Source: a virus. From it: a stretch of 39,031 bases of DNA. The notes under the pieces were generated by a model. It did not search any database. It saw only the letters and a program-made list of their open reading frames with translations, and was not told the origin of the DNA. The stretch's first letter is position 1. Each line of letters begins with the position of its first letter. The stretch lies in UHGV virus genome UHGV-0112814; one strand, given 5' to 3'. The position numbers were made by a program, and so were the translations under genes. Positions 25,683-31,185 of the stretch are shown one piece after another.

Positions 25683-27563
25683 TTAATACTCCGTCACGTT
25701 TTCCTGTCGCCACGCCTCGTCATATTCCGATTTCGGCATATTGGCGATGTAGCTATAAGGCGATCCTGATTCAAGTTGCAGGAACTGGTGCGATTGCTCG
25801 TCAAGGAACAACGGGACACCACCTTCCCAACCTTCGCCGTTACGTTGTTTTTCAAGCATCAAAACAGATGCCGGAGATGCCAGTAGCTGTTCGTCCTTCT
25901 CTGACATCTTTTCACCACTCTGAACTCTCTGTAACGCTCTCTCGCGAGCCTTGTTACGCCAGATGATAAAAAGGTTGTCTGTCAGGTCTGTTATCGCTCC
26001 AGAGCCTTTTACGTCCATTTTCCCGGTTGGTTTTTCTTCGCTATCTCCTTTTCTGGAGTGAGTAACGAGAATGACGTGGGAGTTTGTTTTGTTTTTGAAG
26101 TCACAAATCGAGTCAACAAATGCTTTCTGCCCGTTATAGTCATCGTCACCTATGCCGCATTTCATCAGGCTGTCGATGATGAATAACTGGATGCCGTATC
26201 GGCGGCGAGCGTAGTCGAATATTTCGATCAGCCTGTCGGCTTTCGCCGTTCCAGTCAGGCCAAACACCCAAAATCTTTCGTCATAAAATTTAAATGCAGA
26301 GTCAATTTCCAGCACTGGCGGCATCTTGCAGCACGTCGCCTGACGGGTAAGGCGCTTAAGGAGAATACCAGGCTTCAGCTCAAGTGACGCGATGCACGTC
26401 TTCACACCCTGACGCATTGCCTCAAGTGCCATATGCCCGACAACCTCCGTTTTTCCGTGACCGTTCACACCATTGACCAGCGTCAACTCGGCCTCACGGA
26501 ACTGGAATTTATCTGCCAGAGATTCCCACGGTGGATTAAACAGATACTGCTGCTTGCCGTAGAAAGCGTTGATAGTGTCCTGGTAAAACTCTCGCGCGCT
26601 GTAGAGTTCTTCAGGATCGAAGTAGGATGCCGTGCCGATGTACTGCCAGATTTCATCCTCGGTAACACCGTTCATCAGGCATTCGTTGATGTCTTTGTAC
26701 GGCAGAGTAACAAGACGGCAACGATGTTCACCGAGTCGGCTTGCGATTTCCCTTGCGGCTTCACGACCAACATCATCAACGTCCATCGAGATGAATATTT
26801 CCTCAAACCTGTCGAGGTTGTGATACTCAAACTCAATCCACTGTTGCTTAGCGCCTTTCCCGCCACCAAACGGCACGGATAACGCCGAGATGCCGTATTG
26901 CGCATAGCTCATACAATCAATTTCGCCTTCGCAAAGTACAACCGCCCTCACGCCAGCGTCCAGAGCCTGCCATCCAAACAGACAAGGTTCGCAATCACCT
27001 TCTGCCATAATGACTTTCTTCCCGTCCGGTCGCTCAGTGCTGATTCGCTTGACCTGCAACAACTCACCATCGCGTTTGTACGGAAGCACCAGTGCATCAA
27101 GTTCTCGTTCTCCATTCCACACCTTGCCGCTGACAACCTCGTAGCGCTTTACGACTTCTGGCGATATGCCACGCGATTGCAGGTACTCAAGATGGGATTC
27201 TGTTCTGGTAACGTAGCGGGCGATTTTCTTGCGGTCAGGTCTGGAGAATTTCTTCTCACGTTTGGCATCGAAATGGTGATCGTCATCCTTGATTCCGAGA
27301 AAGGCTTTCGCTTCCTGCATAGCCTGATGCAGGTTAATTCCACGACATGCCATCCACAAATCAAGCATGTCACCGCCGTCTCCCTCAGCGAAATCAGCCC
27401 ATTTTTTCTTGCCGCTAAGGTTGACCTTAAGGCTGTTTCCCTTGTCACCGTTGACGTTACCGGCAACCCACTCATGCCCCTCTTTCTTGCCGTTTGGCAA
27501 CAGGTGCGGAGCCACCCTGTCAACCTGCGCCCAAAGCAGGTCACTGAGTTCACTTGGAGTCAT
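25683..27563 (-). CDS. Bifunctional primase (TOPRIM)/DnaB-like helicase replication protein
   Basis: 626 aa; TOPRIM-like VVLCEGEIDCMSYAQYG segment and Walker A-like VNGVNGHGKTEV segment. Confidence 0.8.
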   Translation of the reverse strand: MTPSELSDLLWAQVDRVAPHLLPNGKKEGHEWVAGNVNGDKGNSLKVNLSGKKKWADFAEGDGGDMLDLWMACRGINLHQAMQEAKAFLGIKDDDHHFDAKREKKFSRPDRKKIARYVTRTESHLEYLQSRGISPEVVKRYEVVSGKVWNGERELDALVLPYKRDGELLQVKRISTERPDGKKVIMAEGDCEPCLFGWQALDAGVRAVVLCEGEIDCMSYAQYGISALSVPFGGGKGAKQQWIEFEYHNLDRFEEIFISMDVDDVGREAAREIASRLGEHRCRLVTLPYKDINECLMNGVTEDEIWQYIGTASYFDPEELYSAREFYQDTINAFYGKQQYLFNPPWESLADKFQFREAELTLVNGVNGHGKTEVVGHMALEAMRQGVKTCIASLELKPGILLKRLTRQATCCKMPPVLEIDSAFKFYDERFWVFGLTGTAKADRLIEIFDYARRRYGIQLFIIDSLMKCGIGDDDYNGQKAFVDSICDFKNKTNSHVILVTHSRKGDSEEKPTGKMDVKGSGAITDLTDNLFIIWRNKARERALQRVQSGEKMSEKDEQLLASPASVLMLEKQRNGEGWEGGVPLFLDEQSHQFLQLESGSPYSYIANMPKSEYDEAWRQENVTEY

Positions 27564-27667
27564 GATTCCCTCAGATTGAGATTTTTAAACCAGAAATCGA
27601 CAAACGAAATACTTAACCAGCCGTGGTTATAACCAGCGACCAGTAGCGATTTGATTTTTGATTTCAT
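27560..27667 (-). CDS. Small ORF (35 aa) translationally coupled between the O-like gene and the primase-helicase gene
   Basis: Own translation MKSKIKSLLVAGYNHGWLSISFVDFWFKNLNLRES; its ATG lies 3 nt after the O-like stop and its stop overlaps the primase ATG. Confidence 0.3.
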   Translation of the reverse strand: MKSKIKSLLVAGYNHGWLSISFVDFWFKNLNLRES

Positions 27668-27670
27668 GGT

Positions 27671-28531
27671 TCACCTGTCGAAAAACACGTAGCCAGTTTT
27701 CGATACGGTGATTGCGGATGATGGTTTGGATTGTGGTTGAATAGTTTCTGGCTTCTCGTCGTTCCAGCGCTGACCGTTCAGGTAGCTCGATGGTAACAAC
27801 CTGTCGAATCCGAACTGCTTACCATTCCTGCATGCGATGTCTTCTGCCAGCATCGTGGCAAACTCGCTTGCCGTACCCCTGGTAGTTTTACGCCATTCCC
27901 TGAACTGTGTTCTGAATGCCGAAGCTGCGTTTTTCTTCCCGGCTTTCCGCATGCCTGCACACCAGAATATTTCCTCGAATGCCTTGTCGGTTTCTTCGTG
28001 ACGGTCAGGTGATTTTTCACACTCCGTCCGAACACTTTCGGACATAGTGTTTTTATTATTTCTTTTTTCTTTTGTAATAGTTTCTTTTGTGTGTCCCTGT
28101 TTTGGTGACAGCGCTGTCACCGTTTTGGTGACACTTTTTGTCACCAATGCAGTGACATTATCACCAGAGTAGTGACACCCTTCGATTTGCCATTCTTCGA
28201 TGTTCTTGTTAGGCCCGATTTGCTGGCCTTCGCGAAGGATAACCTTCATCGCGATAAGCTCATTCTTGGCCTTGTTTACCTTCTGTCTTGGCAGCCTGGT
28301 AATTTGAGCTAACTGACTATCAGAAATGCGATCCATCTTTTTACCGTAGCCGTATGTTTTACGGCATATGGCGTGGGCAACCTTGCTCTGATTTTTCGTT
28401 AAATCTGCGCCGATAAGCTCTTCATACAGGGCATTTGCAAGACGGGTATAACCATCTTCAACTTCTGCCACACGACGCTCCACAGGCCGTTGTGAAGGCC
28501 TTAAATGTGTTACGGTTGCAAGATTACTCAT
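27671..28531 (-). CDS. Replication initiator with lambda O-like N-terminal domain
   Basis: N-terminal [37 protein letters not shown] resembles the phage O N-terminal domain; ori iterons lie inside the gene. Confidence 0.75.
28100..28180. repeat. Candidate replication origin iterons (GTGACA/TGTCAC core repeated about 6 times in both orientations) next to an AT-rich stretch at 28050..28095
   Basis: tttggtgacag / ctgtcaccg / ttttggtgacac / tttttgtcacc / agtgacatt / agtgacaccc inside the O-like gene, as lambda ori lies inside O. Confidence 0.55.
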
Positions 28532-28679
28532 GACCTTTCTCCTTCTGCATCAGCTTCACTTTTTCCAACTCAGCCCGGAATCGACCAGGCTGCTTGAAGC
28601 TGGACAGGAAGCGATCACGTAGTATGTGTTTGTGAATTTTGTCTGGTAAGGACTGAGTTGTTTTGTCATAATGACTCCT

Positions 28680-28757
28680 GTTGATAGATCCAGTAATGAC
28701 CTCAGAATTCCATCTGGATTTGTTCAGAACGCTCGGTTGCCGCCGGGCGTTTTTTAT
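28680..28757 (+). ncRNA. oop: oop antisense RNA (lambda-like), overlapping the 3' end of cII
   Basis: gttgatagatccagtaatgacctcagaa(t)tccatctggatttgttcagaacgctcggttgccgccgggcgttttttatt is near-identical to lambda oop, including its terminator. Confidence 0.75.
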
Positions 28758-28995
28758 TGGTGAGAATCGAAGCAACTTGTCGTGCCAATCGAGCCATGTC
28801 GTCGTCAACGACCCCCCATTCAAGAACAGCAAGCAGCATTGAGAACTTTGGAATCCAATCCCTCTTCCACCTGCTGATCTGCGACTTATCAACTCCCACA
28901 GCTTCCGCTGTCTTCTCAGTTCCAAGCATTGCGATTTTGTTAAGCAACGCACTCTCGATTCGTAGAGCCTCGTTGCGTTTGTTTGCACGAACCAT
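28702..28995 (-). CDS. cII: CII transcriptional activator (lambda CII)
   Basis: [62 protein letters not shown] ... is essentially lambda CII. Confidence 0.95.
28973..28986 (+). promoter_or_regulatory. pRE -35 region with CII-binding TTGC-N6-TTGC direct repeat
   Basis: ttgcgtttgtttgc inside the 5' end of cII, oriented toward cI as in lambda. Confidence 0.6.
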
Positions 28996-29074
28996 ATGTA
29001 AGTATTTCCTTAGATAACAATTGATTGAATGTATGCAAATAAATGCATACACCATAGGTGTGGTTTAATTTGAT

Positions 29075-29106
29075 GCCCTTTTTCAGGGCTGGAATGTGTA
29101 AGAGCG
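29075..29106 (-). promoter_or_regulatory. nutR (boxA cgctctta at 29099..29106; boxB gccctgaaaaagggc at 29075..29089), followed by tR1-like sequence
   Basis: Minus strand reads cgctcttacacattccagccctgaaaaagggcatcaaattaaacc..., matching lambda nutR. Confidence 0.85.
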
Positions 29107-29114
29107 TTGATAAC

Positions 29115-29345
29115 TTAAGCAGCCATTAATTCAGGCCAGATGCTTTCCCAATCAACCGGATGAAGGTCTTTGCGAGTCACTTCACCATTGCTGAACTTCT
29201 CAATCAGAACACAAAGTGCTGCGCCCAATTCATGATTACGGCTAAGTGCTTTCCTCAAATAGCCGATAGAAGTTCCGCACTTGGTGGCAAATTCTCTCTG
29301 CTCTTCCAGTGAAAGGGAGTTCAGATACAAGCGGAGTTCTTCCAT
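29115..29345 (-). CDS. cro: Cro-like repressor (non-lambda specificity)
   Basis: 76-aa ORF divergent from cI across the operator region, RBS aaggag; HTH-like segment TKCGTSIGYLRKAL. Confidence 0.7.
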   Translation of the reverse strand: MEELRLYLNSLSLEEQREFATKCGTSIGYLRKALSRNHELGAALCVLIEKFSNGEVTRKDLHPVDWESIWPELMAA

Positions 29346-29377
29346 TTGCTATCTCCTTCCCGTTGTTGAATAAGGTG

Positions 29378-29406
29378 AGTTTACCTGCAGGTAAAAAACA
29401 AATCAA
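29378..29406 (-). promoter_or_regulatory. Putative pR promoter (-35 ttgatt, -10 taaact) overlapping operators
   Basis: Minus strand: ttgatt-17 nt-taaact upstream of the cro RBS. Confidence 0.5.
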
Positions 29407-29433
29407 TACCCACAGGTTATTTACCGATAGGTA
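29382..29433. promoter_or_regulatory. oR: three operator sites (29382..29393 perfect TACCTGCAGGTA; 29407..29418 and 29422..29433 variants)
   Basis: 12-bp palindrome and two degenerate copies in the cro-cI intergenic region. Confidence 0.6.
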
Positions 29434-29453
29434 ATCAAAGATAGAATTAAATC

Positions 29454-30140
29454 ATGGATAAATACGAACAAAGACGACTAAGGCTGATAGAGATAAGAGA
29501 CCGATTCTGTAATGGAAAGGCCTCAGAGTTGGCTCGTCGAATAGAAAGGGAACCATCATACGTTTCCAGAATGCTGTATCCGGAAGGAAAAAGCGGAAAA
29601 AAACGCATTGCTGACGATATGATGGAACTAATTGAAAAATCTTTTAATCTCCCACGCGGATGGATGGACATGCTTGCAGATAGCAAAGTTGGATCTGCAG
29701 ACCATCTTGAGTTTGCGGGTAACGTTCGTGCGGGTTTTGTTCCGGTAATTGGTGAAGCCGTTTTGGGAGTTGATGGCTCAGTGGATATGATTGAATTCAG
29801 ATCCGGTTGGTTAAGCATCTACAGTGGCGATAAAGATGCTTACGGTCTGAAGGTTAAGGGTGACAGCATGTGGCCAAGGATTCAGTCAGGAGAATATGTT
29901 GTTATTGAACCAAATACGCCAGTACATCCAGGTGATGAAGTCTTTGTAAGGACCAAAGATGGTCATAACATGATAAAGATCATGAACAAAACAAGAGACG
30001 GAGACTATCAGTTTAGTAGTATAAACAGCGATCACCGTCCAATCACTCTTCCTGTTGAAGAAGTTGATAAAATGCATTTTGTTTCAGCTATTGTGAAACA
30101 CACTAGGTACGTAGACCAGGACGATCTGCCAAAATTTTGA
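29454..30140 (+). CDS. cI: CI-type prophage repressor with C-terminal S24 (LexA-like) autopeptidase domain
   Basis: 228 aa; C-terminal GDSMWPRI ... GDEVFVR ... IKI is a LexA/S24 Ser-Lys dyad pattern; divergent from cro. Confidence 0.9.
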   Translation: MDKYEQRRLRLIEIRDRFCNGKASELARRIEREPSYVSRMLYPEGKSGKKRIADDMMELIEKSFNLPRGWMDMLADSKVGSADHLEFAGNVRAGFVPVIGEAVLGVDGSVDMIEFRSGWLSIYSGDKDAYGLKVKGDSMWPRIQSGEYVVIEPNTPVHPGDEVFVRTKDGHNMIKIMNKTRDGDYQFSSINSDHRPITLPVEEVDKMHFVSAIVKHTRYVDQDDLPKF

Positions 30141-30451
30141 GGATAAAGCAGCAAATGTTTATACCAGGTATAGTGGTCGCTGTTGTAATCATCTGCTTCA
30201 TATGGGCAAAGTTATCTCCTGTAAGCTCTAAGCATACAGCTGAACTCATGAAGAAGAAGCATCTTATACATGAGGCAGAAACGATAATTAAGAAGTTCAA
30301 AGGCATGTCATATGACGACATGTCATCAGATCAGATTGCTATGTATAAATGCGCCATTGAGCGTCTTGACCACTTAAACGGACTCAAACCCAAACACACC
30401 CCGGTAGAATCAAAATTGCCGCAATGGCCAAGCAATCCAAATAGCTTCTGA
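30137..30451 (+). CDS. Small membrane-anchored protein co-transcribed with cI (candidate lysogen-expressed exclusion function)
   Basis: 104 aa; N-terminal TM helix MFIPGIVVAVVIICFIWA; start overlaps the cI stop; followed by a strong terminator. Confidence 0.6.
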   Translation: MRIKQQMFIPGIVVAVVIICFIWAKLSPVSSKHTAELMKKKHLIHEAETIIKKFKGMSYDDMSSDQIAMYKCAIERLDHLNGLKPKHTPVESKLPQWPSNPNSF

Positions 30452-30462
30452 CATCTCCTTTC

Positions 30463-30486
30463 AGCCCGCAAAGCGGGCTTTTTTAT
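30463..30486 (+). terminator. Intrinsic terminator ending the cI operon
   Basis: agcccgc-aaa-gcgggct perfect stem followed by ttttttata. Confidence 0.75.
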
Positions 30487-30548
30487 ATCAATCCAAAAAA
30501 TTAATTACCTGAAAATTCAAACAGGTAAACTCTCACACCAATTTTATT

Positions 30549-30585
30549 TACCTGCAGGTATAGACAACAGTTTTACCTGCAGGTA
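30549..30585. promoter_or_regulatory. oL: two perfect TACCTGCAGGTA operators (30549..30560, 30574..30585) overlapping pL
   Basis: Same 12-bp palindrome as in oR, centre-to-centre spacing 25 bp. Confidence 0.6.
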
Positions 30586-30589
30586 TATT
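30561..30589 (+). promoter_or_regulatory. pL promoter (-35 tagaca, -10 tatatt), predicted +1 near 30597
   Basis: 17-bp spacing; downstream leader atcagcaggacgcac... matches the lambda pL transcript start. Confidence 0.55.
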
Positions 30590-30630
30590 TTAAGCCATCA
30601 GCAGGACGCACTAACCACCATGAAGGTGAT

Positions 30631-30660
30631 GCTCTTAAAAATTAAGCCCTGAAGAAGGGC
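30631..30660 (+). promoter_or_regulatory. nutL (boxA gctcttaaa, boxB gccctgaagaagggc at 30646..30660)
   Basis: gctcttaaaaattaagccctgaagaagggcagca matches lambda nutL. Confidence 0.85.
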
Positions 30661-30858
30661 AGCATTCAAAGCAGAAGTCTTTTGGATTGGATGAATGCGC
30701 AGGCTGATGCTCGACCAATGTATAAACAGCGCTCATGGCAAGCAGTAACCAATCTGCGCCTCAAGACAGCGTCACTGGTAGTGCGGGCGCTCTAACCAGT
30801 AAGCCGGAGTTCAGCGCCGGCCATCCAATCACCAAAGCTAACTGACAGGAGAATCCAG

Positions 30859-31185
30859 ATGGATGCACAAACACGCCGCCGCGAACGTCGCGCAGAGAAA
30901 CAGGCTCAATGGAAAGCAGCAAATCCCCTGTTGGTTGGGGTAAGCGCAAAACCAGTTAACCGCCCTATTCTCTCGCTGAATCGCAAACCGAAATCACGAG
31001 TAGAAAGCGCACTGAATCCGATAGACCTTACGGTGCTGGCTGAATACCACGAACAGATTGAAAGCAACCTGCAACGTATTGAGCGCAAGAATCAGCGCAC
31101 ATGGTACAGCAAGCCACGCAGTGAAATGGGTGTGACTTGTGTTGGTCGCCATAAAACGAAGGGCAAATCCATCGCATTAATCTGA
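30859..31185 (+). CDS. N: Antiterminator N (lambda N)
   Basis: MDAQTRRRERRAEKQAQWKAANPLLVGVSAKPVNRPILSLNRKPKSRVESALNPIDLTVLAEYH ... is lambda N, including the Arg-rich boxB-binding motif. Confidence 0.95.
   Translation: MDAQTRRRERRAEKQAQWKAANPLLVGVSAKPVNRPILSLNRKPKSRVESALNPIDLTVLAEYHEQIESNLQRIERKNQRTWYSKPRSEMGVTCVGRHKTKGKSIALI

Follow-up and report, generated by a model that had tools for sequence, protein, structure and literature searches.

Which DNA element determines immunity specificity in the virus genome UHGV-0112814? In the window, as we call the whole stretch of 39,031 nt that was analyzed, the genes cro (29115–29345, minus strand) and cI (29454–30140, plus strand) are divergent and lie 108 bp apart. 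The initial annotation described one perfect and two degenerate copies of a 12-bp palindrome between these genes and the same perfect palindrome twice at oL, and it assigned immunity specificity to this operator family. Both genes and all copies of the palindrome are present as described, three in the cro–cI region (at 29382, 29407 and 29422) and two at oL (exact copies at 30549 and 30574). We consider it very probable that the five sites are the operators OR1–OR3 and OL1–OL2 of a lambda-type bistable CI/Cro switch belonging to the immunity type of phage mEp043. The assignment holds insofar as the sites would serve as operators of a CI/Cro switch, but the element appears to be the arms of a 16-bp site and not the 12-bp palindrome, because the TGCA center of the latter is already different in mEp043, a phage with the same CI N-terminal domain, and varies freely in the family.

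Probable operator sites in the window and in related loci

The 12-mer TACCTGCAGGTA has three exact copies in the window (29382–29393, 30549–30560 and 30574–30585). As 39031/4^12 = 0.002 copies of one given palindromic 12-mer are expected in the window, and all three lie at the two lambdoid operator positions, this number is far beyond chance. The degenerate copies, TACCCACAGGTT at 29407–29418 and TACCGATAGGTA at 29422–29433, carry three mismatches each. At ≤3 mismatches the window contains 20 matches to the 12-mer against 11.5 expected, and degenerate copies alone are not significant; these two are convincing because both keep the outer arms and because their positions are conserved in all relatives. 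When only the arms were searched (TTACC-N4-GGTAA with ≤1 arm mismatch), 5 sites were found in the window where 1.15 would be expected, four of them in OR or OL. We take the operator to be the 16-bp sequence TTTACC-N4-GGTAAA, of which the perfect palindrome of the window would be one instance.

Motif scans place three related 16-bp sites between cro and cI. OR1 (29380–29395, TTTACC-TGCA-GGTAAA) has perfect arms and a center that alternates pyrimidine and purine (YRYR). OR2 (29405–29420, AATACC-CACA-GGTTAT) has weakened arms and a YRYR center, and OR3 (29420–29435, TTTACC-GATA-GGTAAT) has perfect arms and a non-YRYR center. On the far side of cI, OL2 (30547–30562) and OL1 (30572–30587) have the same sequence, TTTACC-TGCA-GGTATA.

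Relatives of this locus were gathered via protein only, with the full-length CI in viral and genome collections and with an alignment of its 75-residue N-terminal domain in metagenomes. The set comprises 116 loci (numbered with the prefix L) with 70 distinct upstream regions, in which the N-terminal domain is 61–100% identical. The 70 regions carry TTACC-N4-GGTAA-type sites, and a strict pattern matches OR1, OR2 and OR3 at spacings of 25 and 15 bp, center to center, in 39 of them. In these 39 regions the arms approach the maximal information content, and that of the four central columns is low. The arms of OR2 are weaker across the relatives as well (ATACC…GGTTA). All of the 38 distinct OL contexts have two sites 25 bp apart, OL2 and OL1, inside TAGACA-N17-TATATT. 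Loci encoding a 139-aa short form of the repressor keep the three-site layout by eye though they were missed by the strict pattern, and the YRYR counts given below therefore come from 39 of the 70 regions. Among 5426 complete E. coli genomes, 52 contain the full region, and the CI cluster at 98% identity was seen on 743 contigs.

Eleven loci form a subgroup with a 233-aa protein, the N-terminal domain of which is 72–73% identical to that of the window. Their sites, ATTACC-YRYR-GGTAAT and GATACC-TGAT-GGTAAA, have altered spacing, and there is no divergent cro nearby. This subgroup is another regulatory context for the same domain.

The four central bases follow a rule that differs from site to site. 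YRYR centers, for which the chance expectation is 1/16, are found in 37/39 sequences at OR1, 37/39 at OR2, 36/38 at OL2 and 28/38 at OL1 but in 0/39 at OR3, the first central base of which is a purine in 39/39. OR1, OL1 and OL2 combine good arms with YRYR; OR2 combines weak arms, the outer one being forced by the overlapping -35 element of pR, with YRYR; and OR3 combines perfect arms with a non-YRYR center. In the 434 and P22 repressors, central operator bases that are not contacted modulate affinity by indirect readout. The statistical pattern in the 39 sequences suggests that the center tunes affinity site by site through DNA shape. The operators of 434 and P22 also have conserved outer arms and a variable center, with systematic differences in the center between strong sites and OR3; their proteins are not detectably related in sequence to those of this family. 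The family rule of alternating pyrimidine and purine at the strong sites, and never at OR3, is drawn from 39 sequences and not from measured affinities.

The centers are also exceptionally polymorphic among 36 near-identical sequences. Counted as segregating sites, which are not independent events and for which recombination was uncontrolled, 10/20 positions vary at the operator centers and 0/59 in the arms, against 22/304 third-codon positions (Fisher p = 2e-6 versus the centers) and 18/192 other non-coding positions. All of the center polymorphisms are transitions that keep the pyrimidine/purine pattern. We regard the excess at the centers as a lead, not a demonstration of selection. Dcm methylation (CCWGG) was considered as a source of the C/T changes and dropped, as the sites contain no CCWGG. 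In the same comparison the unconstrained pL spacer at 30567–30571 is saturated with changes. When window positions 29380–29435 and 30547–30595 were set against L005–L040, L085 and L109–L114, unconstrained regulatory positions (the operator centers, this spacer and 29397–29399) exceeded synonymous sites of the neighboring genes in polymorphism by far.

The mEp043 immunity type and the probable reader of the operator arms

The cassette of cro, OR, cI, a downstream open reading frame (ORF) and OL (29100–30660, 1561 bp) shows 97% identity to phage mEp043 (JQ182734, NC_019706 and PV340537) from end to end, and none of the other phage records matches it beyond the nutL end. CI is 98.2% identical between the two phages, with no differences in nucleotides 29429–29681 encompassing the N-terminal domain; cro differs at 2 nucleotides, and the operator arms are unchanged throughout. 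The window phage and the mEp043 group share, in other words, the same DNA-binding domain, Cro and arms. The operators differ only at positions 6 and 7 of the 12-mer, amounting to 7/20 central bases (from the window to mEp043, TGCA to TGTA in OR1, CACA to CATA in OR2, GATA to GGCA in OR3, TGCA to TATA in OL2 and TGCA to TGTA in OL1). Of the lambdoid phages tested, mEp043 is reported to fall into an immunity group apart from the others (PMC3442831). The notion of a separate immunity type is right about its distinctness, but the type is not new, being already that of mEp043. We predict that the two phages are homoimmune, with the reservation that 7/20 central bases differ. In the mEp043 records no operators are annotated, only a putative pL and a CII site. 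No account of the operators turned up in literature searches for mEp043 or for immunity groups in combination with operators, and the sole match to the 12-mer in a full-text search was an unrelated cloning primer. The operator sites appear to be undescribed.

The protein that would read these sites is a repressor of 228 aa, in which Pfam recognizes only Peptidase_S24 (E=1.4e-17). Its architecture comprises a four-helix helix-turn-helix (HTH) domain (residues 1–73), a disordered linker (74–93) and an S24 domain with Ser138 and Lys175. In an AF2 model of the full-length protein (predicted local distance difference test, pLDDT, 80), the N-terminal domain is likewise helical, the linker disordered and the C-terminal domain rich in beta structure. 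No Pfam family was recognized for residues 1–75 at E≤10 (the best being MarR at E=0.085) and nothing was found for them in a PDB sequence search, and the N-terminal fold was therefore taken from structure prediction. Modeled alone, this domain (pLDDT 95) has four helices, of which 23–29 and 34–40 constitute the HTH. The recognition-helix region PSY(V/I)(S/T)RMLY, PSYVSRMLY in the window, is invariant or nearly so in the family. Residues 1–73 (29454–29672) represent a widespread domain without a Pfam family that is covered by PHROGs 27486 and 5736.

The closest solved structure to the N-terminal domain is Rep of Salmonella phage SPC32H (5d50), with a template modeling score (TM) of 0.87–0.88 and a root-mean-square deviation of 1.3–1.6 Å over 72–73 residues at 26% identity, followed by XRE and C-protein domains. 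The C-terminal domain of Rep matches the window CI only weakly in a fold search, and the latter has an S24 self-cleaving domain; Rep is reported to bind DNA as a tetramer and to lose its activity through an antirepressor (PMC9638917). For the C-terminal domain of CI, the best structural matches are lambda CI fragments (2hnf and 2ho0, TM to target 0.72–0.74), LexA and UmuD. Gly89, Ser138 and Lys175 are invariant in 37 homologs, and Ala88-Gly89 in the linker is a candidate cleavage site. Ser138 and Lys175 are separated by 37 residues, as are Ser119 and Lys156 of LexA. The description of CI as an S24 autopeptidase unlike lambda CI is apt for the DNA-binding domain and for the sequence, which aligns with lambda CI over 55 residues of the S24 core only (31% identity), but not for the catalytic domain; it is misleading because lambda CI itself is an S24 autopeptidase and the top structural match of that domain.

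Cro of the window (76 aa) is a YdaS-like HTH protein, matching YdaS_toxin of Pfam at E=8e-6, which is below the family cut-off, and PHROG 35 (transcriptional repressor) at E=7.5e-16. A Cro homolog that is 45–100% identical and has the conserved motif CGT(S/T)IGYLRKA lies divergent from cI at a distance of ~100–110 bp in every locus with a three-site OR.

The arms change together with the N-terminal domain of CI. Five relatives that are ~64% identical overall and have another N-terminal domain carry TTTAGC-N5-GCTAAA or TTTATC-N5-GATAAA sites, H-19B has similar TTTATC-type arms, and the sites of 933W-type CI are of the form CGTACTTTCAGTACG. Conversely, a locus of Paraburkholderia xenovorans LB400 (NC_007951, 1511063–1514278) and the 139-aa forms (L146–L184) have only the N-terminal domain of CI in common with the window, and TTTACC-N4-GGTAA is found at both operator positions. 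The C-terminal part of these proteins (111–139 aa) is short and not of the S24 type, and Cro is shared as well. That domain, Cro and operators are common to these loci argues that the DNA-binding module has been shuffled between self-cleaving and non-cleaving repressors, beyond Enterobacterales. The covariation is evidence that this N-terminal domain, and presumably also Cro, reads the arms, and we propose that immunity specificity lies in the arms TTTACC/GGTAAA and the matching recognition helix PSYVSRMLY.

If instead the exact 12-bp TACCTGCAGGTA, center included, set specificity, the window phage (TGCA) and mEp043 (TGTA/TATA) would have different sub-specificities. The differences between the two phages do look coordinated, being C to T at position 7 in OR1, OR2 and OL1 and GC to AT in OL2, with the opposite direction in OR3, and the excess of polymorphism at the centers over synonymous sites (10/20 versus 22/304) could be seen in the same light. 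We nevertheless find this explanation improbable, since the CI N-terminal domain is nucleotide-identical in the two phages and cro differs by 2 nt. Moreover, centers are mixed within single genomes, L005 having TGCA at OL2 and TGTA at OL1, and L085 having TGTA at OR1 and TGCA at OL1. All of the center changes are transitions that keep the pattern, which fits shape readout better than base-specific contact.

The palindromes might also be bound mainly by another regulator, either Cro alone or a host factor, or be restriction or hairpin motifs with no repressor role. The Cro homolog is as constant a companion of the sites as the CI domain, so that the sequence by itself does not reveal which protein is the reader. 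However, the sites are arranged over three promoters in the classic way, and the half-site changes together with the N-terminal domain of CI. As for restriction, CCTGCAGG and CTGCAG are recognition sites of SbfI and PstI, respectively, but the core of these sites is exactly the part that is not conserved, and we rejected this reading. A loopless 12-bp palindrome forms no useful hairpin, and Rfam at E≤1 over 28900–31000 returned only sub-threshold chance matches. This group of explanations appears highly improbable to us, and operators read through their arms by CI remain the preferred interpretation.

Promoters and the proposed switch

Consensus matches point to three promoters around the operators, pL and pRM from a promoter scan and pR by eye. 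The putative pR (29378–29406, minus strand), read from the reverse complement, consists of the -35 element TTGATT (29406–29401), a 17-nt spacer and the -10 element TAAACT (29383–29378). Its consensus score, 8/12, is just under the scan threshold; the complement of its -35, TCAATACC, is highly conserved in the information profile of the 39 regions. OR1 overlaps the spacer and -10 of pR, and the outer arm of OR2 merges with its -35. On the other side of cI, pL (30561–30589, plus strand; TAGACA, 17 nt, TATATT) matches 10/12 consensus positions and is annotated as a putative PL in mEp043. The right arm of OL2 runs into the -35 of pL, and OL1 overlaps its spacer and -10. The geometry is common to pR and pL, in that the O1 12-mer starts 7 nt past the -35 and ends at the first two bases of the -10, while O2 abuts the -35. 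The putative pRM (29420–29447, plus strand) comprises TTTACC, which is the left arm of OR3, a 16-nt spacer and TAGAAT.

The TAGAAT at 29442–29447 and the downstream ATG of cI are separated by 6 nt. The same spacing is found in lambda, where the pRM -10 TAGATT is followed by TAACGT and ATG. A TAnnnT hexamer is located 6–7 nt before the cI ATG in 63/70 distinct regions, compared with a background of 5%, and a Shine-Dalgarno motif before cI in 0/70. These observations agree with the earlier view of cI as nearly leaderless, and the cI mRNA is most likely transcribed without a leader from pRM. The center of OR2 is 41.5 bp upstream of the cI ATG, the presumed start of pRM; that of lambda OR2 is 42 bp from the pRM start according to the annotated coordinates.

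From the conserved sites, their covariation with the repressor domain, their overlaps with promoters and the predicted folds, we infer how binding, order of occupancy, activation and cleavage might proceed in this switch. A dimer of CI, and also Cro, would bind each 16-bp site with one HTH per TTTACC arm. In the lysogen, CI would fill OR1, OL1 and OL2, sites whose arms are perfect or nearly so and whose pyrimidine–purine center is flexible, and also, probably cooperatively, OR2 with its weaker arms 25 bp from OR1. This occupancy would block pR (TTGATT-17-TAAACT) and pL (TAGACA-17-TATATT), while CI at OR2 is placed to activate pRM, as in lambda. Transcription from pRM would start at or beside the A of the ATG and yield a leaderless cI mRNA. 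OR3 would be the site of negative autoregulation by CI and would probably be taken first by Cro. Induction would come about when RecA stimulates the S24 domain, with Ser138 and Lys175, to cleave its own protein at Ala88-Gly89.

Several observations weigh against this interpretation. Our literature searches found no binding, footprint or transcript-start data for the window phage or mEp043. OR2 and OR3 are only 15 bp apart and have one base in common, so that the two may not be filled simultaneously and the occupancy logic of lambda may not transfer. For the 933W repressor, a 49% relative, binding to adjacent sites is reported to be non-cooperative (PMC3317979), and cooperativity is therefore an assumption here. 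The strict three-site pattern covers 39 of 70 regions only, and the 233-aa subgroup has two sites with a different spacing. With 8/12 consensus positions, pR was not called by the promoter scan. The purine that opens every OR3 center could also reflect the needs of pRM, whose -35 is the left arm of OR3, and not repressor affinity.

Comparison with known switches places the locus among the lambdoid ones. The genes are divergent with operators between them, the operators overlap pR, pRM and pL, the repressor has the order HTH, linker and S24 domain, and the OL sites lie at pL upstream of nutL and N, accompanied by a putative CII-dependent pRE. Lambda shares with the window phage a three-site OR flanked by divergent cI and cro, the fold of the S24 C-terminal domain and lambda-type cII, pRE, N and nutL. 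In contrast, the lambda operators are 17 bp in length and unrelated in sequence to the 16-bp sites of the window, their spacings at OR are 24 and 23 bp (from coordinates) instead of 25 and 15 bp, and lambda has an OL3 where the window phage has two canonical OL sites. With different OR sequences and a CI that aligns over the S24 core only, the window phage does not group with imm-lambda.

The relationship to 933W is closer at the protein level. Its CI is ~49% identical overall, and the N-terminal HTH domains, which Pfam does not recognize, can be aligned. 933W has five operator sites (PMC3317979) in the same layout of three OR and two OL sites, and phi24B annotates OR1–3. The 933W sites are 15 bp with an odd center, OR1 being CGTACTTTCAGTACG, and conserve G, A/T, A and C at positions 2–5 of each half (PMC3317979), whereas the window sites are 16 bp with an even center. 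H-19B-type relatives have 17-bp TTTATC- or TTTAGC-N5 sites instead of TTTACC-N4. The recognition helix also differs (PSYVSRMLY in the window, as against SKGVSKWF or PSQLTQVS). The protein is thus related to the 933W type, but its specificity is different.

Neighboring elements and implications

Upstream of OL2, a split repeat at 30504–30531 (ATTACC-N14-GGTAAACT, in full ATTACC-TGAAAATTCAAACA-GGTAAACT) places operator-type half-sites 14 bp apart instead of 4, that is, with one extra helical turn. It is preceded by an A-rich tract and is kept in 37 of the 38 distinct OL contexts, those of enterobacterial-type relatives (N-terminal-domain identity 71–100%), being absent only from the Paraburkholderia locus L102. 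Positions beyond the arms are conserved too, and the distance to OL2 is constant, although the upstream flanks are unrelated. When folded, the element forms a modest hairpin of 7 bp (-6.8 kcal/mol, z = -3.1). Candidate identities are an OL3 with one additional helical turn, a weak upstream promoter (ATTACC-16-TAAACT, with the same -10 as pR) and the site of another protein. In a comparison by eye with consensus sequences, the spacing does not fit integration host factor or an ARG box. A TTACC-N17-GGTAA sequence at 28276–28302 inside the O-like gene was taken as chance, 0.29 being expected.

The remainder of the region is of lambdoid organization. The cI gene is followed by a small conserved ORF of 98 aa (30155–30451, plus strand), whose product has a hydrophobic N-terminus and matches PHROG 10450 (E=6.6e-55, function unknown) without a Pfam match. 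Cotranscribed with cI and in the position of lambda rex, it is a candidate exclusion or conversion gene expressed in the lysogen. The operon ends at an intrinsic terminator (30463–30479, plus strand) with a 7-bp stem containing six G-C pairs followed by TTTTTT. Downstream of pL, nutL (30593–30660, plus strand) comprises boxA and the boxB hairpin GCCCTGAAGAAGGGC at 30646–30660 and is 95–97% identical to the annotated nutL of lambda, 434 and HK542. A terminator-like hairpin called on the minus strand at 30646–30660 is the stem-loop of this boxB and no terminator. After nutL comes a lambda-type N (30859–31185; Pfam N36, E=1.6e-26). Beyond cro lie a lambda-type cII (28702–28995, minus strand; Phage_CII, E=1.7e-48) and the CII-binding TTGC-N6-TTGC of a lambda-type pRE directed towards cI (TTGCGTTTGTTTGC, 28973–28986, plus strand), a site that is also annotated in mEp043 (JQ182734). 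The early region, running right to left, continues with an O-like gene (27671–28531, minus strand) and a primase/helicase gene (25683–27563, minus strand). The homology to mEp043 spans the replication genes and N (26588–30685 and 30817–31156), so that the replication, immunity and N genes (26588–31156) are of the type of mEp043 (genus Aguilavirus), cII, pRE and N being of lambda type. The first 24 kb, unlike mEp043, is P22/Sf6/CUS-3-like virion DNA, and the window phage is accordingly a mosaic lambdoid phage.

Two bolder ideas, which we judge tentatively and as a pair to be rather unlikely, go beyond the operator assignment. The center might be an affinity code under diversifying selection, in which YRYR marks strong sites and other centers weak sites of the OR3 type, and the split repeat ATTACC-N14-GGTAAACT might be a third OL site. 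Under the former, switch set-points would diverge rapidly between phages that have identical repressors. The latter would mean that one CI dimer with a flexible linker, or a tetramer, spans an extra helical turn, a geometry that has not been described for lambdoid repressors.

The switch proposed here is an ordinary one, organized like those of lambda and 933W, and leaves the understanding of lambdoid switches unchanged. It supplies an operator map for a common immunity type of E. coli prophages whose records annotate none, along with a rule by which the arms would set specificity and the center would tune strength, OR3 always being the exception. The series of half-sites TTTACC-N4, TTTATC-N5, TTTAGC-N5 and, in 933W, CGTAC-N5 could serve for the sequence-based prediction of immunity groups, and it could also help to map the rules that relate recognition helix to base in a repressor domain for which there is no Pfam model.

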